From IMG/VR virus record IMGVR_UViG_3300030339_000027: a DNA stretch of 20,000 bases, one strand, 5' to 3'. Source of the stretch: an uncultured virus (IMG/VR IMGVR_UViG_3300030339_000027) (taxonomy: Duplodnaviria > Heunggongvirae > Uroviricota > Caudoviricetes). Positions 9,393 to 20,000 of the stretch are shown in pieces. A program made the translations under genes and the position numbers. The notes beneath the pieces were generated by a model, which saw nothing but the letters and a program-made list of their open reading frames with translations, was not told the DNA's origin and did no database searches. Each line of letters starts with the position of its first letter. Positions within the stretch are counted from its first letter, which is position 1.

Positions 9393-10079
9393 TTATGAGG
9401 AAAACATTTTAAAATATTCAGTGATTGAGGTACCTAAAGCATCTACAAAACCTTTTTTAGCTCGATCTGAATGTTTAGTACCATCAAACCAATCTTTTAC
9501 TGTACCTGTGCCAAGTAAATGAGCTGCAGCAGCCATTCCATTCTCTGTAATTGGTATTCCTTTGAAACTAGTGCCTATATACTTCAAGTAAGGGGTCAAC
9601 TTTTTAAGATTAATAGTTTTATAATTCAAAGCAGCATTATGTTGTGCATTTAAATCTGTATCATAATCTTGAGCAAGAATACCCACAGTTTTTAAACTAT
9701 CATCATTAAATTGATATAGTCCTCTGTAAGATCCTTGTGTAGCAGTAGGTATTAAAGAGGATTCTCTTAATCCTAATTTATATAAATAGTCTTTATTATA
9801 CTCAGAAGTAGGTAACTGCTTTATTGATTGTATACTCTGTTGGACAGTTGGATTATTGGTATTAAAAGGGACTTTTTTCTTTACAGGATAAGGAGTTTCT
9901 TCAGTAGGTCCATCTATTTCAGTCGATCCACCAGCTATTCCAGGTAATCCTGCCATAAAGTCCATATATTCTTTTAAATAAGGAGAGGGTTCTGGTATAG
10001 TAGAATCTATGCTTGTGGGTTTCACACCATTACGATAATTATTGATTTTTTCTTTAGAGGATTGATTAAGTAGGTCCAT
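9393..10079 (-). CDS. Lysozyme-like / lytic transglycosylase-fold peptidoglycan hydrolase
   Basis: Catalytic-helix LRESS, then GLYQF, AAAAHLLGTG and DALGTSITEY motifs. The N-terminal ~75 aa are Pro-rich and low-complexity. Confidence 0.8.
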   Translation of the reverse strand: MDLLNQSSKEKINNYRNGVKPTSIDSTIPEPSPYLKEYMDFMAGLPGIAGGSTEIDGPTEETPYPVKKKVPFNTNNPTVQQSIQSIKQLPTSEYNKDYLYKLGLRESSLIPTATQGSYRGLYQFNDDSLKTVGILAQDYDTDLNAQHNAALNYKTINLKKLTPYLKYIGTSFKGIPITENGMAAAAHLLGTGTVKDWFDGTKHSDRAKKGFVDALGTSITEYFKMFSS

Positions 10080-13125: not shown

Positions 13126-13444
13126 TTTTGTGATCTTCTATAAATTTGTCTAATAAAGATAATGCTTTCATTCTATCAGAATAATATCCGGACATTATAG
13201 CAGTTTTTAATTCTTCATAAATATCTCTTAAAGTATTTATCGGCAAGGGTTTTATTACCATAGGAATTATTTCTTTATACATAATTCCAGTTTCATCACT
13301 TCTCTCTGAGGGTAAACAACATGTATTAGAACATTCCCCTTTATATTCAAAATAACATCCAGCACATCCTTCTAATGGGTCAGGCACAACCATAAGAGTA
13401 ATACCTTTATAATCAAATGTATCCCCAATTTTATGCTCTTCCAT
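13118..13444 (-). CDS. Hypothetical Cys-rich, probably metal-binding protein (108 aa)
   Basis: Motif GCAGCYF-x5-CSNTCC-x4-RSD. Overlaps both neighbouring genes. Confidence 0.75.
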   Translation of the reverse strand: MEEHKIGDTFDYKGITLMVVPDPLEGCAGCYFEYKGECSNTCCLPSERSDETGIMYKEIIPMVIKPLPINTLRDIYEELKTAIMSGYYSDRMKALSLLDKFIEDHKNG

Positions 13445-14303
13445 AAATTATAAGATTTCTTGGTATATTATAAGGATTATTTCGTTTGAAATCAGAAGCA
13501 TCATGTCGTTTTTTAATTTTCAAATATACTTCTTCTTTTACAGTTGTAGGAAATCTAACCATCTTTAAAAGACATTGATCTACTTCAGCATAACTAGAAG
13601 CACCTAGTTGATCTAAATCACTATTTGTAATGCCTAGACCATCTGTAGGAGTAGCATCTATACAAGCTCCTAAAGCATAAGCTTCAGCTTGTTTATCTTC
13701 TAATTCCAATTGATTTACTAAATACTTAGATAAACCATATACTTCTGTTTTCCAGAGATTTTGAAACATTCCATAGTCACCAACGTCACCATGTAAAGTC
13801 CAGAAACCTAATAGATACTCAGTAAAGTTATCTGTGGAGAGAACCATGCCTTTATTATACTGAGCTAGATTGTAAAGATAAATCATTCTCATACGAGCTT
13901 TAATGTTACCCATACGTATCTTTTTCTCAAATTCTGATTCTTTTTTTAAAGGATCTATAATAAAAGTATCCATAGTGTGAGATAATTGCTGAAAAGGAAA
14001 TCCCAGATCCATCTCATGAAATTGAGTACAAAAATGTTTACCTATACCTAAGGCACGATTAATCTCATCTTTGTGATTACTCTGAATCGGAATACTTACT
14101 CCAATTAAAGGTATATTTAATTCATCACAAATAGGTTTAGCTAAAACTGCGCATAAAGCAGAATCAATACCTCCTGAAATTCCTAATACTAGAGATTTTA
14201 ATCCACTATTAGATAAGTAATCCATCAATTCTTTTCTTATGTTATCACACATCAATTCATAATCAGTTTGAATTTCTAATTGATACGTTGTATCTGTTAT
14301 CAT
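13431..14303 (-). CDS. nadE: NH3-dependent NAD+ synthetase family protein (no glutaminase domain)
   Basis: PP-loop LGISGGIDSA, GNIKARMRM, STDNFTE, GFWTLHGD, KTEVY, PTDGL and DLDQLG. Confidence 0.93.
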   Translation of the reverse strand: MITDTTYQLEIQTDYELMCDNIRKELMDYLSNSGLKSLVLGISGGIDSALCAVLAKPICDELNIPLIGVSIPIQSNHKDEINRALGIGKHFCTQFHEMDLGFPFQQLSHTMDTFIIDPLKKESEFEKKIRMGNIKARMRMIYLYNLAQYNKGMVLSTDNFTEYLLGFWTLHGDVGDYGMFQNLWKTEVYGLSKYLVNQLELEDKQAEAYALGACIDATPTDGLGITNSDLDQLGASSYAEVDQCLLKMVRFPTTVKEEVYLKIKKRHDASDFKRNNPYNIPRNLIIYGRA

Positions 14304-15451
14304 AATTTTAATTCTTTTTTACAGGTTATTATTTCTTCCGAATCACCAGTATTTTTTCCCAGATCATCTGAGATTTTAACTGTATGCTTATCACCAACTT
14401 TACTTAATTTAATTACTATATTTAAAGGTTTTATTCCAGTAATATCATTGGTTATATAAGTACCCACACCATAAGTTTTATCCAAGGTGGCATTAGGTCT
14501 ATAAGAGTCAATTGCATTAATTTTCTCTAAATTTAGAGAATCACTATACATCACTCCTTTAGCTTTTGCAATTTTATTGTCAAGTAAATATTTCAAAACT
14601 AAATCAGTATAAATTAATGGATCACCACTATCTTGTCTAAAACCATCTAATTCTCTAGCATCTTTAGGATCTAAATTACTAAAGAAATGTGTAGAAGTAT
14701 AAGTGTCTGTTAAGACTATATTTAACTTTTTATCATACACAGTTTTCCAAGTTTTCATAGCTTTTTCATTAGCTAAGATATATCCAAATTTAGCACCATG
14801 AAACATTATCCATTCATGAGCAGTAGTTCCTTTAATAGGAAGATTATGGATCATTCCAAAATACATATTACTGGTTCCTCTTAAACCATTATTCATTTTT
14901 AGAATACTGATAGCTAAGGATTGTGCTAATTTAGAAAATCTTCTACGAGTCCCAAACTCAATAATATGATAGTCTTTTTCAGACATAATCCTTCCTTTTT
15001 CGGCAGTACGAGTTTTAAAATCACTTAAACTTGTATTAGGATTTTCAATTTCAAAATATACTTGTGAAATTATAGCCATAAGTGGAACTTCCCAAAGGAT
15101 AATATTTTTCCAATTTCCTTTAATTTTTATAGATAAATTAGAACCTGATCCTGTAATAATTACATCTTCCGGATTAAATCTATAATTTTTAATAAATTCA
15201 AAAAAATCTTCGTCAAATAGAGAACCTAAATCTTTTCTTAAAAAAAGTTCTTCTATTTGAGTTAAACTAATATTTGACATAAGTTTAACTTGTTCTCGAA
15301 TTTCTGCACATACTTCTGGGGAAAATTCTCTTTTATCTCTATTATGGAATGTATACTCAACCTGTTCTGTAGGATAAGTTTTTAGTACAGCATTCAACAT
15401 TGTGCATTTGTACAAATCATTGTCTAAAAGACTAGTTATTATTTGGTTCAT
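14300..15451 (-). CDS. pncB: Nicotinate phosphoribosyltransferase
   Basis: SLLDNDLYK, EFGTRRR, GTSN, GTTAHEW (phospho-His motif), LTDTY, RQDSGDP, SDSLN, GVGT, IVIK and KISD. These are PncB-type signatures, not NAMPT (DSYK/AxEHS). Confidence 0.93.
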   Translation of the reverse strand: MNQIITSLLDNDLYKCTMLNAVLKTYPTEQVEYTFHNRDKREFSPEVCAEIREQVKLMSNISLTQIEELFLRKDLGSLFDEDFFEFIKNYRFNPEDVIITGSGSNLSIKIKGNWKNIILWEVPLMAIISQVYFEIENPNTSLSDFKTRTAEKGRIMSEKDYHIIEFGTRRRFSKLAQSLAISILKMNNGLRGTSNMYFGMIHNLPIKGTTAHEWIMFHGAKFGYILANEKAMKTWKTVYDKKLNIVLTDTYTSTHFFSNLDPKDARELDGFRQDSGDPLIYTDLVLKYLLDNKIAKAKGVMYSDSLNLEKINAIDSYRPNATLDKTYGVGTYITNDITGIKPLNIVIKLSKVGDKHTVKISDDLGKNTGDSEEIITCKKELKL

Positions 15452-15912
15452 GATGGTCTCATTATGTATTTATTAGTATTTTCAATCTCAGGCATTTCGA
15501 ATCCCTGTTCTTTGGCTCTCATCTTTTTATATTCTATAAATCGATTATTATAAAGTTCAGCTAAATCAGTTTGTACTCTTCTAAGTACCTCTAACTCATG
15601 TTCGGACCAGTATTTAGCGGCAACTCCTGCTTTAAAAGCAGCGTCATCATTAAATGGAGTTCTAAAATGGCCATAAACTTTAATTAGTCTAAAATACCAC
15701 CACACTCTTCTTTTATGTCTTTCTGGCCATCCACTCCTTCCTGTATGTTGTACTGTTATGTTACTAAAACTTACTCCAGAAAATATATTTCCTGAACTAC
15801 TTGCAGTTAGAGTACCTGTTGAGGTAATATTCCCTGAACTACTTGCAGTTAGAGTATCTGTTGAGGTAATACTACCACTCATTGCATTAACTACTATTGC
15901 GGGTTGTGTCAT
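15448..15912 (-). CDS. Hypothetical protein (154 aa) with a Ser/Thr-rich N-terminal repeat
   Basis: ATGA overlap with pncB. The start is moved from 15963 to the ATG at 15912 because 15923-15955 is a terminator. Confidence 0.7.
   Translation of the reverse strand: MTQPAIVVNAMSGSITSTDTLTASSSGNITSTGTLTASSSGNIFSGVSFSNITVQHTGRSGWPERHKRRVWWYFRLIKVYGHFRTPFNDDAAFKAGVAAKYWSEHELEVLRRVQTDLAELYNNRFIEYKKMRAKEQGFEMPEIENTNKYIMRPS
15785..15871. repeat. In-frame tandem duplication, 42-bp unit x ~2
   Basis: CCTGAACTACTTGCAGTTAGAGTA(C/T)CTGTTGAGGTAATA starts at 15791 and 15833. It encodes GSITSTDTLTASSS/GNITSTGTLTASSS. Confidence 0.95.
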
Positions 15913-15922
15913 ATCTAAATTT

Positions 15923-15955
15923 AAAAAAATAGCGAATCGGTTTCCCAATTCGCTA
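15923..15955 (-). terminator. Intrinsic terminator
   Basis: Minus-strand RNA UAGCGAAUUGG-GAAA-CCGAUUCGCUA followed by U7; 11-bp stem with one G-U pair. Confidence 0.88.
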
Positions 15956-15966
15956 AAAAACATTAA

Positions 15967-16433: not shown

Positions 16434-16898
16434 TTAAATTAACGGGATTGAATCCCCATATTTTTTATTAAGTGCTTTATTTATACCATCCAGAATTACT
16501 CTTGTTTCTGGGGTTACTCCGTCTACACTTGTAAGACGAAACATTTTTTTCCATTCATATTTAGAACCACTTACATAAAAATCTGTTCTTATCCCTAGTG
16601 GTAAAATTTTGAAGGCTATTTTAGGGGAAACCCCTGCTGCAATCAAACTGAAGTAATTAACTTCTGCTGCTGCACATCCATCATGATATATTAATTCTGC
16701 TAAAGAATTTTCTATCATAGTTTCAGGAGTGATGATAGAGATTTCATCTGCCCTAATATCATCTGAGATTGTTTTAACTTCTATATAAGAACTTATTTCT
16801 CTACAAACTAATGCATCACTAGTTATTGCAACTATTATGTTATCAGTCTCTCTAGATAATAAATCTATAATTTCAAAATGTGGTGTTATATATTTCAC
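16434..16898 (-). CDS. Degenerate ThyX-fold protein, probably catalytically inactive
   Basis: YFSLIAAGVSPKIAFKILPLGIRT...EWKKMFRL...PETR follows the ThyX C-terminal pattern, but RHRxxS is absent. GTGA overlap at the start. Confidence 0.65.
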   Translation of the reverse strand: MKYITPHFEIIDLLSRETDNIIVAITSDALVCREISSYIEVKTISDDIRADEISIITPETMIENSLAELIYHDGCAAAEVNYFSLIAAGVSPKIAFKILPLGIRTDFYVSGSKYEWKKMFRLTSVDGVTPETRVILDGINKALNKKYGDSIPLI

Positions 16899-17155
16899 TC
16901 TTCATTGGTTTTATAAGTAAAAGTCTTAATATCTGCACTTTGATGAAAACCATTTGCTTGACAAGATGGTTTAAATACTGTAACTTTTATTTCATAACAG
17001 TCTTCCACTTCATTGTAAGATAATCTGGTTTCACTACCAATAGTCTCACATTTTACAGTAGTAATAACTCCATGATTTCTAGAACCTACTCTACTTGCAG
17101 TTCCTTTACTTCCATACACATCACCAAACATAAAAAGTCCTTTAGGTTTAGCCAT
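16895..17155 (-). CDS. Hypothetical protein (86 aa)
   Basis: The likely start is the ATG at 17155 (MAKPKG), overlapping the dut stop, rather than 17194. Confidence 0.65.
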   Translation of the reverse strand: MAKPKGLFMFGDVYGSKGTASRVGSRNHGVITTVKCETIGSETRLSYNEVEDCYEIKVTVFKPSCQANGFHQSADIKTFTYKTNEE

Positions 17156-17594
17156 TAGCTTTTCTCCCATCGGTACCAGTATGGCCAAAGCCACCCTCGC
17201 CTCTTTCTGTTTCAGATAGTTCTACTGATTTTTCCCATTCTATTGACAAGACTTCAGCCCAAACAAGTTGAGCAATTCTATCTCCAGGATTAATTGTAAA
17301 TGGATCTTTAGAGAGATTTACAAGAATTACTTTGATTTCTCCTCTGTAATCAGCATCTATGGTTCCTGGGCTATTTAAGACCGTTACACCATGTTTAAAA
17401 GCTATTCCAGACTTTGGTCTCACTTGTATCTCAGATCCCTTAGGAACCTCTACAAATAGACCTGTAGGAATAGCAGCTCTCTCAAGCATACCTAAAATAA
17501 TAGGTTCTGTAATATTGGCACTAACGTCCATTCCCGCTGCCCATCTAGTTTCATATCTAGGCAATGCATTATCTGATTTGTTTATAATTTTCAT
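17148..17594 (-). CDS. dut: Trimeric dUTPase
   Basis: All five motifs present: AGMDV, RPKSG, GTIDADYRGEI, RIAQLV and RGEGGFGHTG. Confidence 0.96.
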   Translation of the reverse strand: MKIINKSDNALPRYETRWAAGMDVSANITEPIILGMLERAAIPTGLFVEVPKGSEIQVRPKSGIAFKHGVTVLNSPGTIDADYRGEIKVILVNLSKDPFTINPGDRIAQLVWAEVLSIEWEKSVELSETERGEGGFGHTGTDGRKANG

Positions 17595-18613
17595 AACGGT
17601 TTTTGTATTAATTGTCTATATTGAATCCAACCTTTAAAATTTCCAGACCATAGATGACCTTTTGAGTCTGAATGTGTAAATCCACTTCCTACTCCTAAAT
17701 TATAATTACTAATTGTGGGAACTTGAGCACAATGTTCAAAAGGACTCATATGCTTATTTTCCAGTAAGTTATCATGCAATTGAATATCTTTATGATAATC
17801 TATCTTTCCATCAAAATTATTGTAAGATGTTCTTGCACAACGTGCTGTAGCTACTTTAAGTTTTAATTCATTTTCTAATGAACCATGCCAAATAGTAGTA
17901 CCAGATGGTATATTTTCTCTAATAAAATCTTTTAAATTAATTCTATCACCAAATGGCATATGCCATTCTCCAAGTTTTAAGGACTTAGGAGTGCTTTCTA
18001 TCATTGCATCATACATTGCTTCAGCTAAAGCTTGTATATGTATTTCTGCTCCAGAATGACTTAAGTTCCACCATTCCCATTCATTTAATTCATAAGGAAG
18101 TGTATGTACTTTTTCTAATTCTTTTCTTGATTTATAAAAAACATCAGGTTCAGTATTTACTGCATATTTTGGACATCTTAATTCAAAGAATCCGCTAAAT
18201 TCAGTAGCTGTTACCAGTACTTTATGCCATAAAAATGGCTCTAAAAGACGGTTACAAAGTTGTTTTGTTATATTACTTTCACTAAACTGTATTGCTGCTT
18301 TCAATGCTGATTCTTTTGCATTTATCCAACCCCAATAAGGACTATTTGGATTTTCTTTTCCTGGTAAATATTCTGTACCTTGCATTCCAGAATGATCTTT
18401 TTGCCACGCAATTGGAATAAAAGGATCTTCTATTACAGATGCCACCATTTTATAAAATGGAATAGCTCTAGAAGAAGCACTATTTCTACTAAAAACTCTA
18501 TGAGTCATTAGTTCCGAATGTATAAATCTCGGATATGTTAAAACATAAGTAGTGATCCTATCTCCCTTTGGGGACATAGAATCACATATTATTTCTGCAT
18601 TTATTTTGTTCAT
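17591..18613 (-). CDS. thyX: Flavin-dependent thymidylate synthase (ThyX/Thy1-like, phage type)
   Basis: YPRFIHSELMTHRVFSRNSASSRAIP, NRLLEPF, ARCARTSY and HMSPFEH. The likely start is 18613 (TAATG overlap with RNR). Confidence 0.85.
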   Translation of the reverse strand: MNKINAEIICDSMSPKGDRITTYVLTYPRFIHSELMTHRVFSRNSASSRAIPFYKMVASVIEDPFIPIAWQKDHSGMQGTEYLPGKENPNSPYWGWINAKESALKAAIQFSESNITKQLCNRLLEPFLWHKVLVTATEFSGFFELRCPKYAVNTEPDVFYKSRKELEKVHTLPYELNEWEWWNLSHSGAEIHIQALAEAMYDAMIESTPKSLKLGEWHMPFGDRINLKDFIRENIPSGTTIWHGSLENELKLKVATARCARTSYNNFDGKIDYHKDIQLHDNLLENKHMSPFEHCAQVPTISNYNLGVGSGFTHSDSKGHLWSGNFKGWIQYRQLIQKPL

Positions 18614-20000
18614 TAACCACATTTGTTATAACCACAATCCACATCAGAACATTTTACACATCCTTCAATACGAATCATTTTTTTACCACATTCAGGACAT
18701 TTTTCCTCTAAAATAGCCTCTATTGCATATTTTGCAAGAGTTCTTGTAATAGCTTTACAGAAAGCAGTCACAGAAGTTGGAACTTGTCCAAGTTGATCTA
18801 TGATAAAGTTTAAATCAATTCCTTGTCTTAAACCTAAAACAGAGATCATTCTTGTTAAAGCCTGCTCTTCATCACTTCCAAAATAATTTGCAATATTTTT
18901 TATAGTGACTGATTCAGTCTCTAAGTTATAATTTTTACCTACTTTTACTAAATTACCCTTTTTTACAGCTTTACCTAAAGAAATTTCCATTTCTTTAAAA
19001 GCAAAGATTTCATATGGTTTATCTTTAAATAATCCTACAATTACTAACCAATCATCTCCAGAGGCTTTCAAGTGATGTATATCACAAGGAAGTGTTTTAG
19101 GACGTTTAGTTGTTATTGTTTGAGGATCACTTTTTTCAACCTTTTTTAACACTGCAGACATAGTACCTGCTCGATAAGTAGTTAAACCTTTAATCGTCCC
19201 AGTTTTCCAAGCCTTAATATAAAGACTCTTAAAGTCTTCATAAGGATAGTCATTTGGTAAATTAATAGTCTTACTTAAAGCTGCGTCTACATAACTTGAA
19301 ACTATGGTCATGATACTTAAATGAGCATCTACATTTAACTGTTCAGTAGTTTTGGCCCACTCAGCTTTTGGATCCCACTCACCAATACTTTTAAGATAAT
19401 GTACAGCATAATCTTCAACTAAGGATTCTTTTACGTATCCTCCAGTTTGAGACCATTTATAAGTTATTCCGTCTAAAATAGTAGATTTAAATTGTGTATC
19501 ACCTTCCATTTTAGTACCAAGCCATTTATCATGAGTACCTAAATCTCTTGGTAACACGTCTACACCATGAGTTCTTATATATTCTGTCATAAAGACAGGT
19601 TCAAATCCCCCAGATATATTATTAGCTAAAATACCAGTATTTCCTGTTGGTTGTACTGAAGTTAAATGGCTATTTCTTAAGCCATAAAGCTTAATAAGAT
19701 CCATAGTTTCAGAAGTTAGAGCTTGAGTCCAAAAATCAGATTCTAAGAAATTCTCATAATTCCATAAAGGAAATGGTCCTTTTTCTTTAGCCAATAAAGC
19801 AGAGGCTTGATAAATTTGATTAGTTACAAATTCAAAGTACTTCTTAACTAAGAGTTTACTTTCTTCAGATCCATACTCAACTTTTAATATCATTAAAGCA
19901 GAACCTAAACCAGTTACACCGATTCCAATTCTTCTCTTATTCTGAATTTCTGTATATTGTTCTGGAAGTGGCATAAATGTCACATCTATTACATTATCTA
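18613..20000 (-). CDS. nrdJ: Class II (adenosylcobalamin-dependent) ribonucleotide reductase, C-terminal part (5' truncated)
   Basis: The frame is open to the window edge (DNVIDVTF). Motifs RRIGIGVTG, RNSHLTSVQPTG, SGGFEP, SKTINLP and KGLTTYR, then a C-terminal RPKTLPC domain and Zn-ribbon CPECG...EGCVKC...CG. No nrdB follows. Confidence 0.88.
   Translation of the reverse strand, partial: DNVIDVTFMPLPEQYTEIQNKRRIGIGVTGLGSALMILKVEYGSEESKLLVKKYFEFVTNQIYQASALLAKEKGPFPLWNYENFLESDFWTQALTSETMDLIKLYGLRNSHLTSVQPTGNTGILANNISGGFEPVFMTEYIRTHGVDVLPRDLGTHDKWLGTKMEGDTQFKSTILDGITYKWSQTGGYVKESLVEDYAVHYLKSIGEWDPKAEWAKTTEQLNVDAHLSIMTIVSSYVDAALSKTINLPNDYPYEDFKSLYIKAWKTGTIKGLTTYRAGTMSAVLKKVEKSDPQTITTKRPKTLPCDIHHLKASGDDWLVIVGLFKDKPYEIFAFKEMEISLGKAVKKGNLVKVGKNYNLETESVTIKNIANYFGSDEEQALTRMISVLGLRQGIDLNFIIDQLGQVPTSVTAFCKAITRTLAKYAIEAILEEKCPECGKKMIRIEGCVKCSDVDCGYNKCG

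Follow-up and report, generated by a model that had tools for sequence, protein, structure and literature searches.

The window, a 20,000-nucleotide stretch of phage DNA, contains pncB and nadE as two intact open reading frames on the minus strand. The features of the locus are listed with the evidence on which each assignment rests.

13431-14303, minus strand: nadE, single-domain (predicted ammonia-dependent) NAD synthetase, 290 aa (NCBIfam, Pfam, PDB matches, dN/dS)
14300-14303, minus strand: ATGA stop/start overlap of pncB and nadE, 4 nt, TCAT on the plus strand (a common junction type in the block)
14300-15451, minus strand: pncB, nicotinate phosphoribosyltransferase (PRTase) of the TIGR01514 type, 383 aa (NCBIfam, PDB matches, AlphaFold model, dN/dS)
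15448-15963, minus strand: unassigned ORF upstream of pncB, overlapping it by 4 nt (ORF call, comparison with relatives)

As a sequence-only reading of this DNA had claimed, both genes are intact, overlap in an ATGA and retain their motifs, GTTAHEW in PncB (His212) and SGGIDS in NadE (residues 43-48), which are invariant or nearly so within close clades. Counted from longest-ORF starts, 10 of the window's 13 junctions on the minus strand are overlaps, four of the 13 by 4 nt. The ATGA overlap therefore does not mark out pncB-nadE from other genes in the block, and it was rejected as proof of a dedicated pair. No family match was found for the ORF upstream of pncB; a similar ORF lies 5' of pncB in three relatives (L006, L174 and L179). 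The location within a replication block, also proposed earlier, was confirmed, the neighbours being a class II ribonucleotide reductase (RNR), ThyX, a dUTPase, an ATP-dependent ligase and a Dda helicase. Two ThyX-family ORFs were seen in the window (16434-16898 and 17591-18622, minus strand), one full and one a 154-aa partial; a 305-309 aa protein occupies their site in L174 and L179. An SLT-like lytic enzyme is encoded at 9393-10079 (minus strand). A different-looking hydrolase is present at the equivalent site of L006, a 78% relative (L006:10328-10960), in which the rest of the block is complete apart from this exchange.

The genome record of 74,131 bp ends within the RNR gene. A longer copy, G001 (115,598 bp, 65% complete by CheckV), was 98.8-100% identical to the phage across three stretches compared and extends the sequence by the terminase and a further 36 kb of the replication block. 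The phage belongs to Crassvirales, as it encodes capsid and muzzle proteins of the crassvirus type (PF23898, PF25731), a crAss-type terminase and giant injected proteins. Among 50,697 phage records, the top match of the terminase was MT835470.1 (44%), followed by named crAss-like phages (25-31%). Of the other 49 records searched, 10 had terminases 39-46% identical to it, and three of these 10 records are complete, with lengths of 178-190 kb. This length fits the Zeta group of crAss-like phages, given as 145-192 kb in the available text of PMC7886860, size being the sole criterion compared. With a close relative on a contig of 170,868 bp, the phage itself is probably under 200 kb. Other observations from these sequences include a split PolA gene (464 aa plus a 72-aa tail, about 640 bp between; L011:1016-3269, minus strand), which suggests an intron-like insertion, and consecutive rIIB-like, rIIA-like and dATP/dGTP diphosphohydrolase genes (L010:6547-11436, minus strand). 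Genes for tRNA-Met and tRNA-Gly, an endonuclease VII-like ORF and a multi-repeat protein (L011:15416-15785 and 17047-18597, minus strand) are situated upstream of a Nudix gene. Residues 1800-1917 of a 2534-aa giant protein (L334:8250-15851, plus strand) form a DUF7831 domain, a mostly viral family, for which a functional lead was sought and none found.

PncB matched the nicotinate PRTase equivalog TIGR01514 over its full length with 328.5 bits (cut-off 269.55). Pfam gave no NAMPT_N match, and the PHROG family 'nicotinamide PRTase' scored only 48 bits. The AlphaFold model (pLDDT 93.3) had TM scores of 0.90-0.95 to PncB/Npt1 structures and about 0.40 to NAMPT, and the closest solved relatives by sequence were all PncB/Npt1. 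With the score above the equivalog cut-off, the fold and the conserved His motif, the protein belongs to PncB. The HMM check thus bore out the nicotinate-type assignment, and Nampt/Namat was rejected as an identity for the PRTase. According to the accessible part of PMC4442680, one residue contributes to the choice between nicotinate and nicotinamide and explains it incompletely. NadE scored 124.8 bits with TIGR00552 (cut-off 63.65) and consists of the synthetase domain alone, with an SGGxDS loop and no glutaminase domain; no Pfam match to a nitrilase-family domain was found among the G001 ORFs scanned. Single-domain NadE enzymes use ammonia (PMC3376133, Table S4). The view of the partner as an amidating synthetase of deamidated chemistry was likewise upheld.

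The pair had also been taken as a self-contained pathway, which it is not: PncA must act before PncB, and an adenylyltransferase must link PncB to NadE. A proposed search of the genome for these genes succeeded in part, with a likely PncA in G001 but no NadD/NadM, NadR or Prs. Two further features were located in the longer copy.

G001 110,713-111,552, minus strand: isochorismatase-family protein, likely nicotinamidase (PncA), 279 aa (NCBIfam, PDB, residues)
G001 113,524-114,042: Nudix hydrolase (with PncA, 36-39 kb from the pair)

The PncA gene is about 36 kb from pncB. Its top NCBIfam model was nicotinamidase, below the cut-off (36 versus 174 bits), and two of three weak PDB matches (E 0.001-0.04) were labelled nicotinamidase. 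The family's Asp12/Lys172/Cys222 triad and Asp71/His73/His138 are kept across 14 aligned phage and bacterial homologues. On these residues and matches the protein is likely a nicotinamidase; the long form of PncA likewise occurs in Bacteroidales pncA-pncB-nadE operons. Homologues of PncA (78% and 75%) were found on contigs of 170,868 and 86,934 bp. Contigs carrying close PncB and NadE homologues have these two lengths as well, and we infer that they are the same contigs. In G001 the gene heads a cassette with a vWA-like protein (labelled from a motif, Pfam giving no match), a PP2C phosphatase and a kinase (L011:10040-14553, minus strand, equal to G001 107,039-111,552), which possibly acts as a phosphorylation switch on nicotinamide entry. 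Of 58 dereplicated viral loci, 15 likewise have vWA/PP2C genes near PncB, as do some contigs of Spirochaetota (L319, L326). NadD/NadM, Prs and Nampt were not found in the 115.6 kb of this 65%-complete record. Because TIGR00482 (NadD) was matched by the control genome of Bacteroides thetaiotaomicron and nine of 21 near-complete PncB phages had no NadD match, the host NadD is a plausible source of the missing step.

Selection on the pair was estimated by a simple counting method that is near saturation. Against L006 (about 78-80% identity), dN/dS was 0.126 for pncB and 0.134 for nadE, compared with 0.114 for the ligase and 0.110 for the helicase; against L174 the values were 0.31 and 0.22. These ratios indicate purifying selection on both genes. 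Their adjacency is preserved in L006, L174, L175 and L179, and synteny around the pair is shared by phages 65-78% identical. FastTree placed PncB (24 rows, support 99; L003 omitted) and NadE (17 rows, support 99; low-scoring NadE and about two thirds of the cellular rows omitted) in congruent close clades, distinct both from those of the gut cassette and from the cellular proteins sampled. The two genes have long travelled together. Their placement speaks at most weakly against inheritance of the pair from the gut-phage cassette, the backbone of the trees being weakly resolved. A host operon captured recently and neutrally, or a misjoin of host and phage contigs, would account for a pncB-nadE adjacency that is also found in Bacteroidales, but the identical synteny, dN/dS of 0.13-0.31, the separate clades and a GC content resembling that of the flanks largely refute this explanation, which we regard as very improbable.

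A PncB profile retrieved 280 relatives from IMG/VR and a NadE profile at least 525; 80 of each were taken further. In 58 dereplicated PncB loci, covering up to 10 kb on each side, NadE was present in 39, PncA in 36, NadD/M in 11 and a Nudix gene in 14. The locus profiles were custom-built; when 18 sample matches were checked on NCBIfam, one Nudix remained without a match. The survey of pncB-nadE synteny suggested earlier showed an arrangement kept in the four relatives named above, and NadE within 400 bp of PncB in 12 of the 58 loci. A compact pncA-pncB-nadE-nadD-Nudix cassette was found in MT835470.1 and many gut records of related large crAss-like phages, with terminases 39-46% identical to that of the phage. 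Whole records were surveyed in a hand-picked set of 50 viral records of at least 109 kb with PncB, 32 of them fetched by PncB and 18 by NadE with PncB nearby. PncA was detected in 47 (21 of 21 at 90% completeness or more), four of the 50 having contributed to the PncA profile. NadE was detected in 44 (26 of the 32 fetched by PncB), NadD in 31 (12 of 21 near-complete; 13 above the cut-off) and a Prs/Adps-like gene in three (one of 21 near-complete). In GenBank, 20 records matched PncB and 43 matched NadE. Bacillus phage G has an isochorismatase, pncB, nadD and nadE within 6 kb, and in Sinorhizobium phage Phosso an adenylyltransferase gene accompanies nadE and pncB.

For a cellular control, 296 genome loci had a NadE of this clade, and the best 80 were inspected. 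pncB was found in 12 (10 of the 43 that extend 3 kb or more in each direction), mostly in Bacteroidales and often together with pncA and an NrtR-like gene, and the adjacency is therefore not phage-specific. Two nadE-nadD-Nudix clusters resembling the phage cassette (L256, L307) are on contigs labelled archaeal MAGs and may be mis-binned phage DNA. The phage genes resemble the Bacteroidales salvage operon (NrtR-like, pncA, pncB, nadE) in gene families, long-form PncA, a shared NadE clade (54-62% identity) and, in several genomes, adjoining pncB and nadE. They differ in three respects: the phage proteins group in separate clades, the phage pair has no NrtR-like regulator gene beside it, and the phage pncA has moved into the kinase/phosphatase cassette.

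The available text of 10.1101/2024.02.11.579819 describes two phage pathways of NAD+ reconstitution, NARP1 (Adps + Namat) and NARP2 (Nampt + Nmnat); neither 'nicotinate' nor 'NAD synthetase' appears there. Neither Adps (PF14572) with Namat (PF18127+PF04095) nor Nampt with Nmnat was found in G001; the set is distinct from both, as had been stated. Like NARP1, it would recycle NADase products, but G001 lacks Adps and Namat. With NARP2 of Vibrio phage KVP40 it shares classical salvage enzymes, consumption of PRPP and a predicted nicotinamide start, whereas here the intermediates would be deamidated, the steps four, Nampt replaced by PncB, and PncA and NadE required. The designation as a 'third' enzymatic solution had to be dropped, since NARP3 already denotes PnuC + NadR (PMC13464706, in whose accessible text 'PncB', 'NadE' and 'crAss' do not occur). 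NARP3 also rebuilds NAD+ in phages with known enzyme families, but it imports nicotinamide riboside, and no Pfam match to PnuC or NadR was obtained among the ORFs scanned in the incomplete G001 record.

Novelty of the gene set could not be maintained either. Besides the annotations of phages G and Phosso, pncB-nadD-nadE clusters of gut jumbo phages were reported from sequence in 2024 (PMC11662467), and the available text of PMC13384950 names pncB, nadD and nadE in the predicted gene content of a Xanthomonas phage and proposes a counter-defence role. Compared with this Preiss-Handler set, the phage has pncB and nadE, with nadD absent from what G001 covers. The jumbo phages Kuafu_71 and Kuafu_19 of PMC11662467 are similar in encoding the same enzymes, in their predicted Bacteroidota hosts and in resting on computation, according to the accessible section, which contains no defence test. 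Here, in contrast, the phage is crAss-like and probably smaller than 200 kb, nadD was not found, and the PncA entry step is apparent from co-occurrence. Section 3.6 of PMC9503650 deals with NadV, NadM and NadR only and gives a NadV rate of 22-33% in medium and jumbo phages. No NAD term was found in the text or searchable supplementary files of PMC7886860 on crAss-like phages, nor 'PncB' or 'nicotinate' in the accessible part of a November 2026 review (PMC13728456). In the literature searched, mostly open-access papers, we found neither an experimental test of a phage deamidated route or a 'NARP4' nor a paper on the spread of the route in large crAss-like phages.

Nampt/Namat was detected in none of the 50 PncB records, at first sight a marked contrast to the NadV rate of 22-33%; the KVP40 positive control was detected. 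For a lineage control, 49 loci were picked by a giant structural protein, without dereplication; 47 were searchable. PncB was above the cut-off in 24 of 47 (four of 13 near-complete), and the NAD pathway is therefore accessory in the lineage. Nampt/Namat was present in one of 47 (none of 13 near-complete). Mutual exclusion with NARP1/2 was rejected as strong evidence, because Nampt is rare in the lineage anyway and the records are related; nine of the 13 near-complete genomes have neither PncB nor Nampt, which weakens the argument further and leaves the absence of Nampt as weak evidence. The exception is G082 (62% complete), which had no PncB match and carries the following.

L384:6601-10037 (G082): NARP1-like pair, Nampt/Namat-type gene of 517 aa with a Prs-like gene of 267 aa 1 kb downstream

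This single case hints that the route could be interchangeable with NARP1.

The enzymes very probably constitute a route from nicotinamide via nicotinate, NaMN and NaAD to NAD+, with substrates and flux predicted from their families. A host NADase would split NAD+ into nicotinamide and ADP-ribose. Phage PncA would then convert nicotinamide to nicotinate, which PncB would combine with PRPP to NaMN. NaMN would be converted to NaAD by NadD, predicted to be the host's or a phage enzyme yet to be seen, and phage NadE would form NAD+ from NaAD, ammonia and ATP. The Nudix hydrolase might conceivably split ADP-ribose into AMP and ribose-5-phosphate for PRPP. The deamidated route costs PRPP and more ATP than NARP1. 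As to its main purpose, we lean slightly towards the offsetting of host defences that destroy NAD+. The family and fold of PncB agree with this, as do the co-occurrence of PncA and NadE with PncB, the compact cassettes of related phages and the accessory pattern with its NARP1-like pair in G082. Defence NADases release nicotinamide, as described in the available text of 10.1101/2024.02.11.579819, and a nearly universal PncA would make nicotinamide the entry point, which favours recycling of cleaved NAD+. NARP2, described in the same source, indicates that ordinary salvage enzymes can rescue phages. On the other side stand the lack of NadD/NadM in G001 and in nine of the 21 near-complete PncB records, and a PncA that scores below the nicotinamidase cut-off and is encoded in the vWA-like/PP2C/kinase cassette away from pncB. 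Furthermore, Bacteroidales already carry pncA-pncB-nadE operons, so that the phage genes may merely add flux.

A metabolic role fits the position of the pair among NADPH-using nucleotide genes (ThyX, RNR) equally well. The genes would in that case enlarge the pool of NAD(P)H available to ThyX and a thioredoxin-fed class II RNR for making dNTPs when the host grows slowly or is short of niacin, and would have no particular connection to immunity. The pair is placed between RNR/ThyX/dUTPase and ligase/helicase, it is under selection as strong as that on the ligase and helicase, and the accessible part of PMC11662467 interprets such clusters as complementing host pathways. Absence of PncB from nine of 13 near-complete lineage genomes, entry through PncA, which suggests recycling of cleaved NAD+, and the lack of a Pfam match to an NAD-consuming phage enzyme or NAD kinase among G001 ORFs of at least 70 aa argue against it. 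We consider it less likely than counter-defence; metabolic and anti-defence roles are not exclusive.

Two other proposals address the missing NadD. NadE could be an NMN synthetase that amidates NaMN directly, with a host NMN adenylyltransferase completing a two-step route. This would account for both the absence of NadD and the pncB-nadE adjacency maintained in L006, L174, L175 and L179, and the NMN synthetase 3FIU topped the structural and profile PDB searches with NadE. NadE Gln148 aligns with Gln133 of 3FIU, a specificity residue of that enzyme. However, the margin of 3FIU over ordinary NadE was small (E 2e-13 versus 6e-13; 25% identity), and Gln148 also occurs in three of 16 viral NadE with NadD in the same locus and is thus not diagnostic. 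In addition, residues of the NaAD adenosine site, listed for B. subtilis NadE in PMC3376133 Table S4 and mapped here by motif spacing and alignments, are retained (Tyr29, Tyr144, Asp176 and Lys273), Tyr29 in 132 of 133 clade members. An NMN synthetase is accordingly improbable. Alternatively, PncB could accept ADPR-PP instead of PRPP and yield NaAD directly. NARP1 chemistry can hide behind Pfam labels, according to the available text of 10.1101/2024.02.11.579819, and NadD is frequently absent. This shortcut was rejected as hardly credible given that a Prs/Adps-like gene was found in only three of 50 PncB records, one of 21 near-complete and none in G001, and that PncB has a canonical fold (TM 0.95).

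The textbook enzymes are known, and the gene set is in print for jumbo phages; what is added here is the crAss-like setting, a distant PncA for the first step, a distribution that marks the route as accessory, and a single case that looks like an exchange with NARP1. Returning to NAD+ reconstitution against defence, we tentatively propose, at less than even confidence, a fourth phage pathway, PncA-PncB-NadD-NadE plus Nudix, that would recycle both NADase products, act as the main NAD counter-defence of large gut and environmental crAss-like phages and be interchangeable with NARP1 in that lineage. In the branch of the present phage it would operate without a phage NadD, using that of the host or, much less probably, NadE as an NMN synthetase. 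An anti-defence result would be expected rather than surprising. If NAD+ is rescued, the known NARP set would gain a fourth chemistry, and the share of phages counted as having a counter-defence of this type, about 5% for NARP1/2, would be too low. Large crAss-like phages of Bacteroidota, an abundant gut group, would then have a concrete counter-defence.
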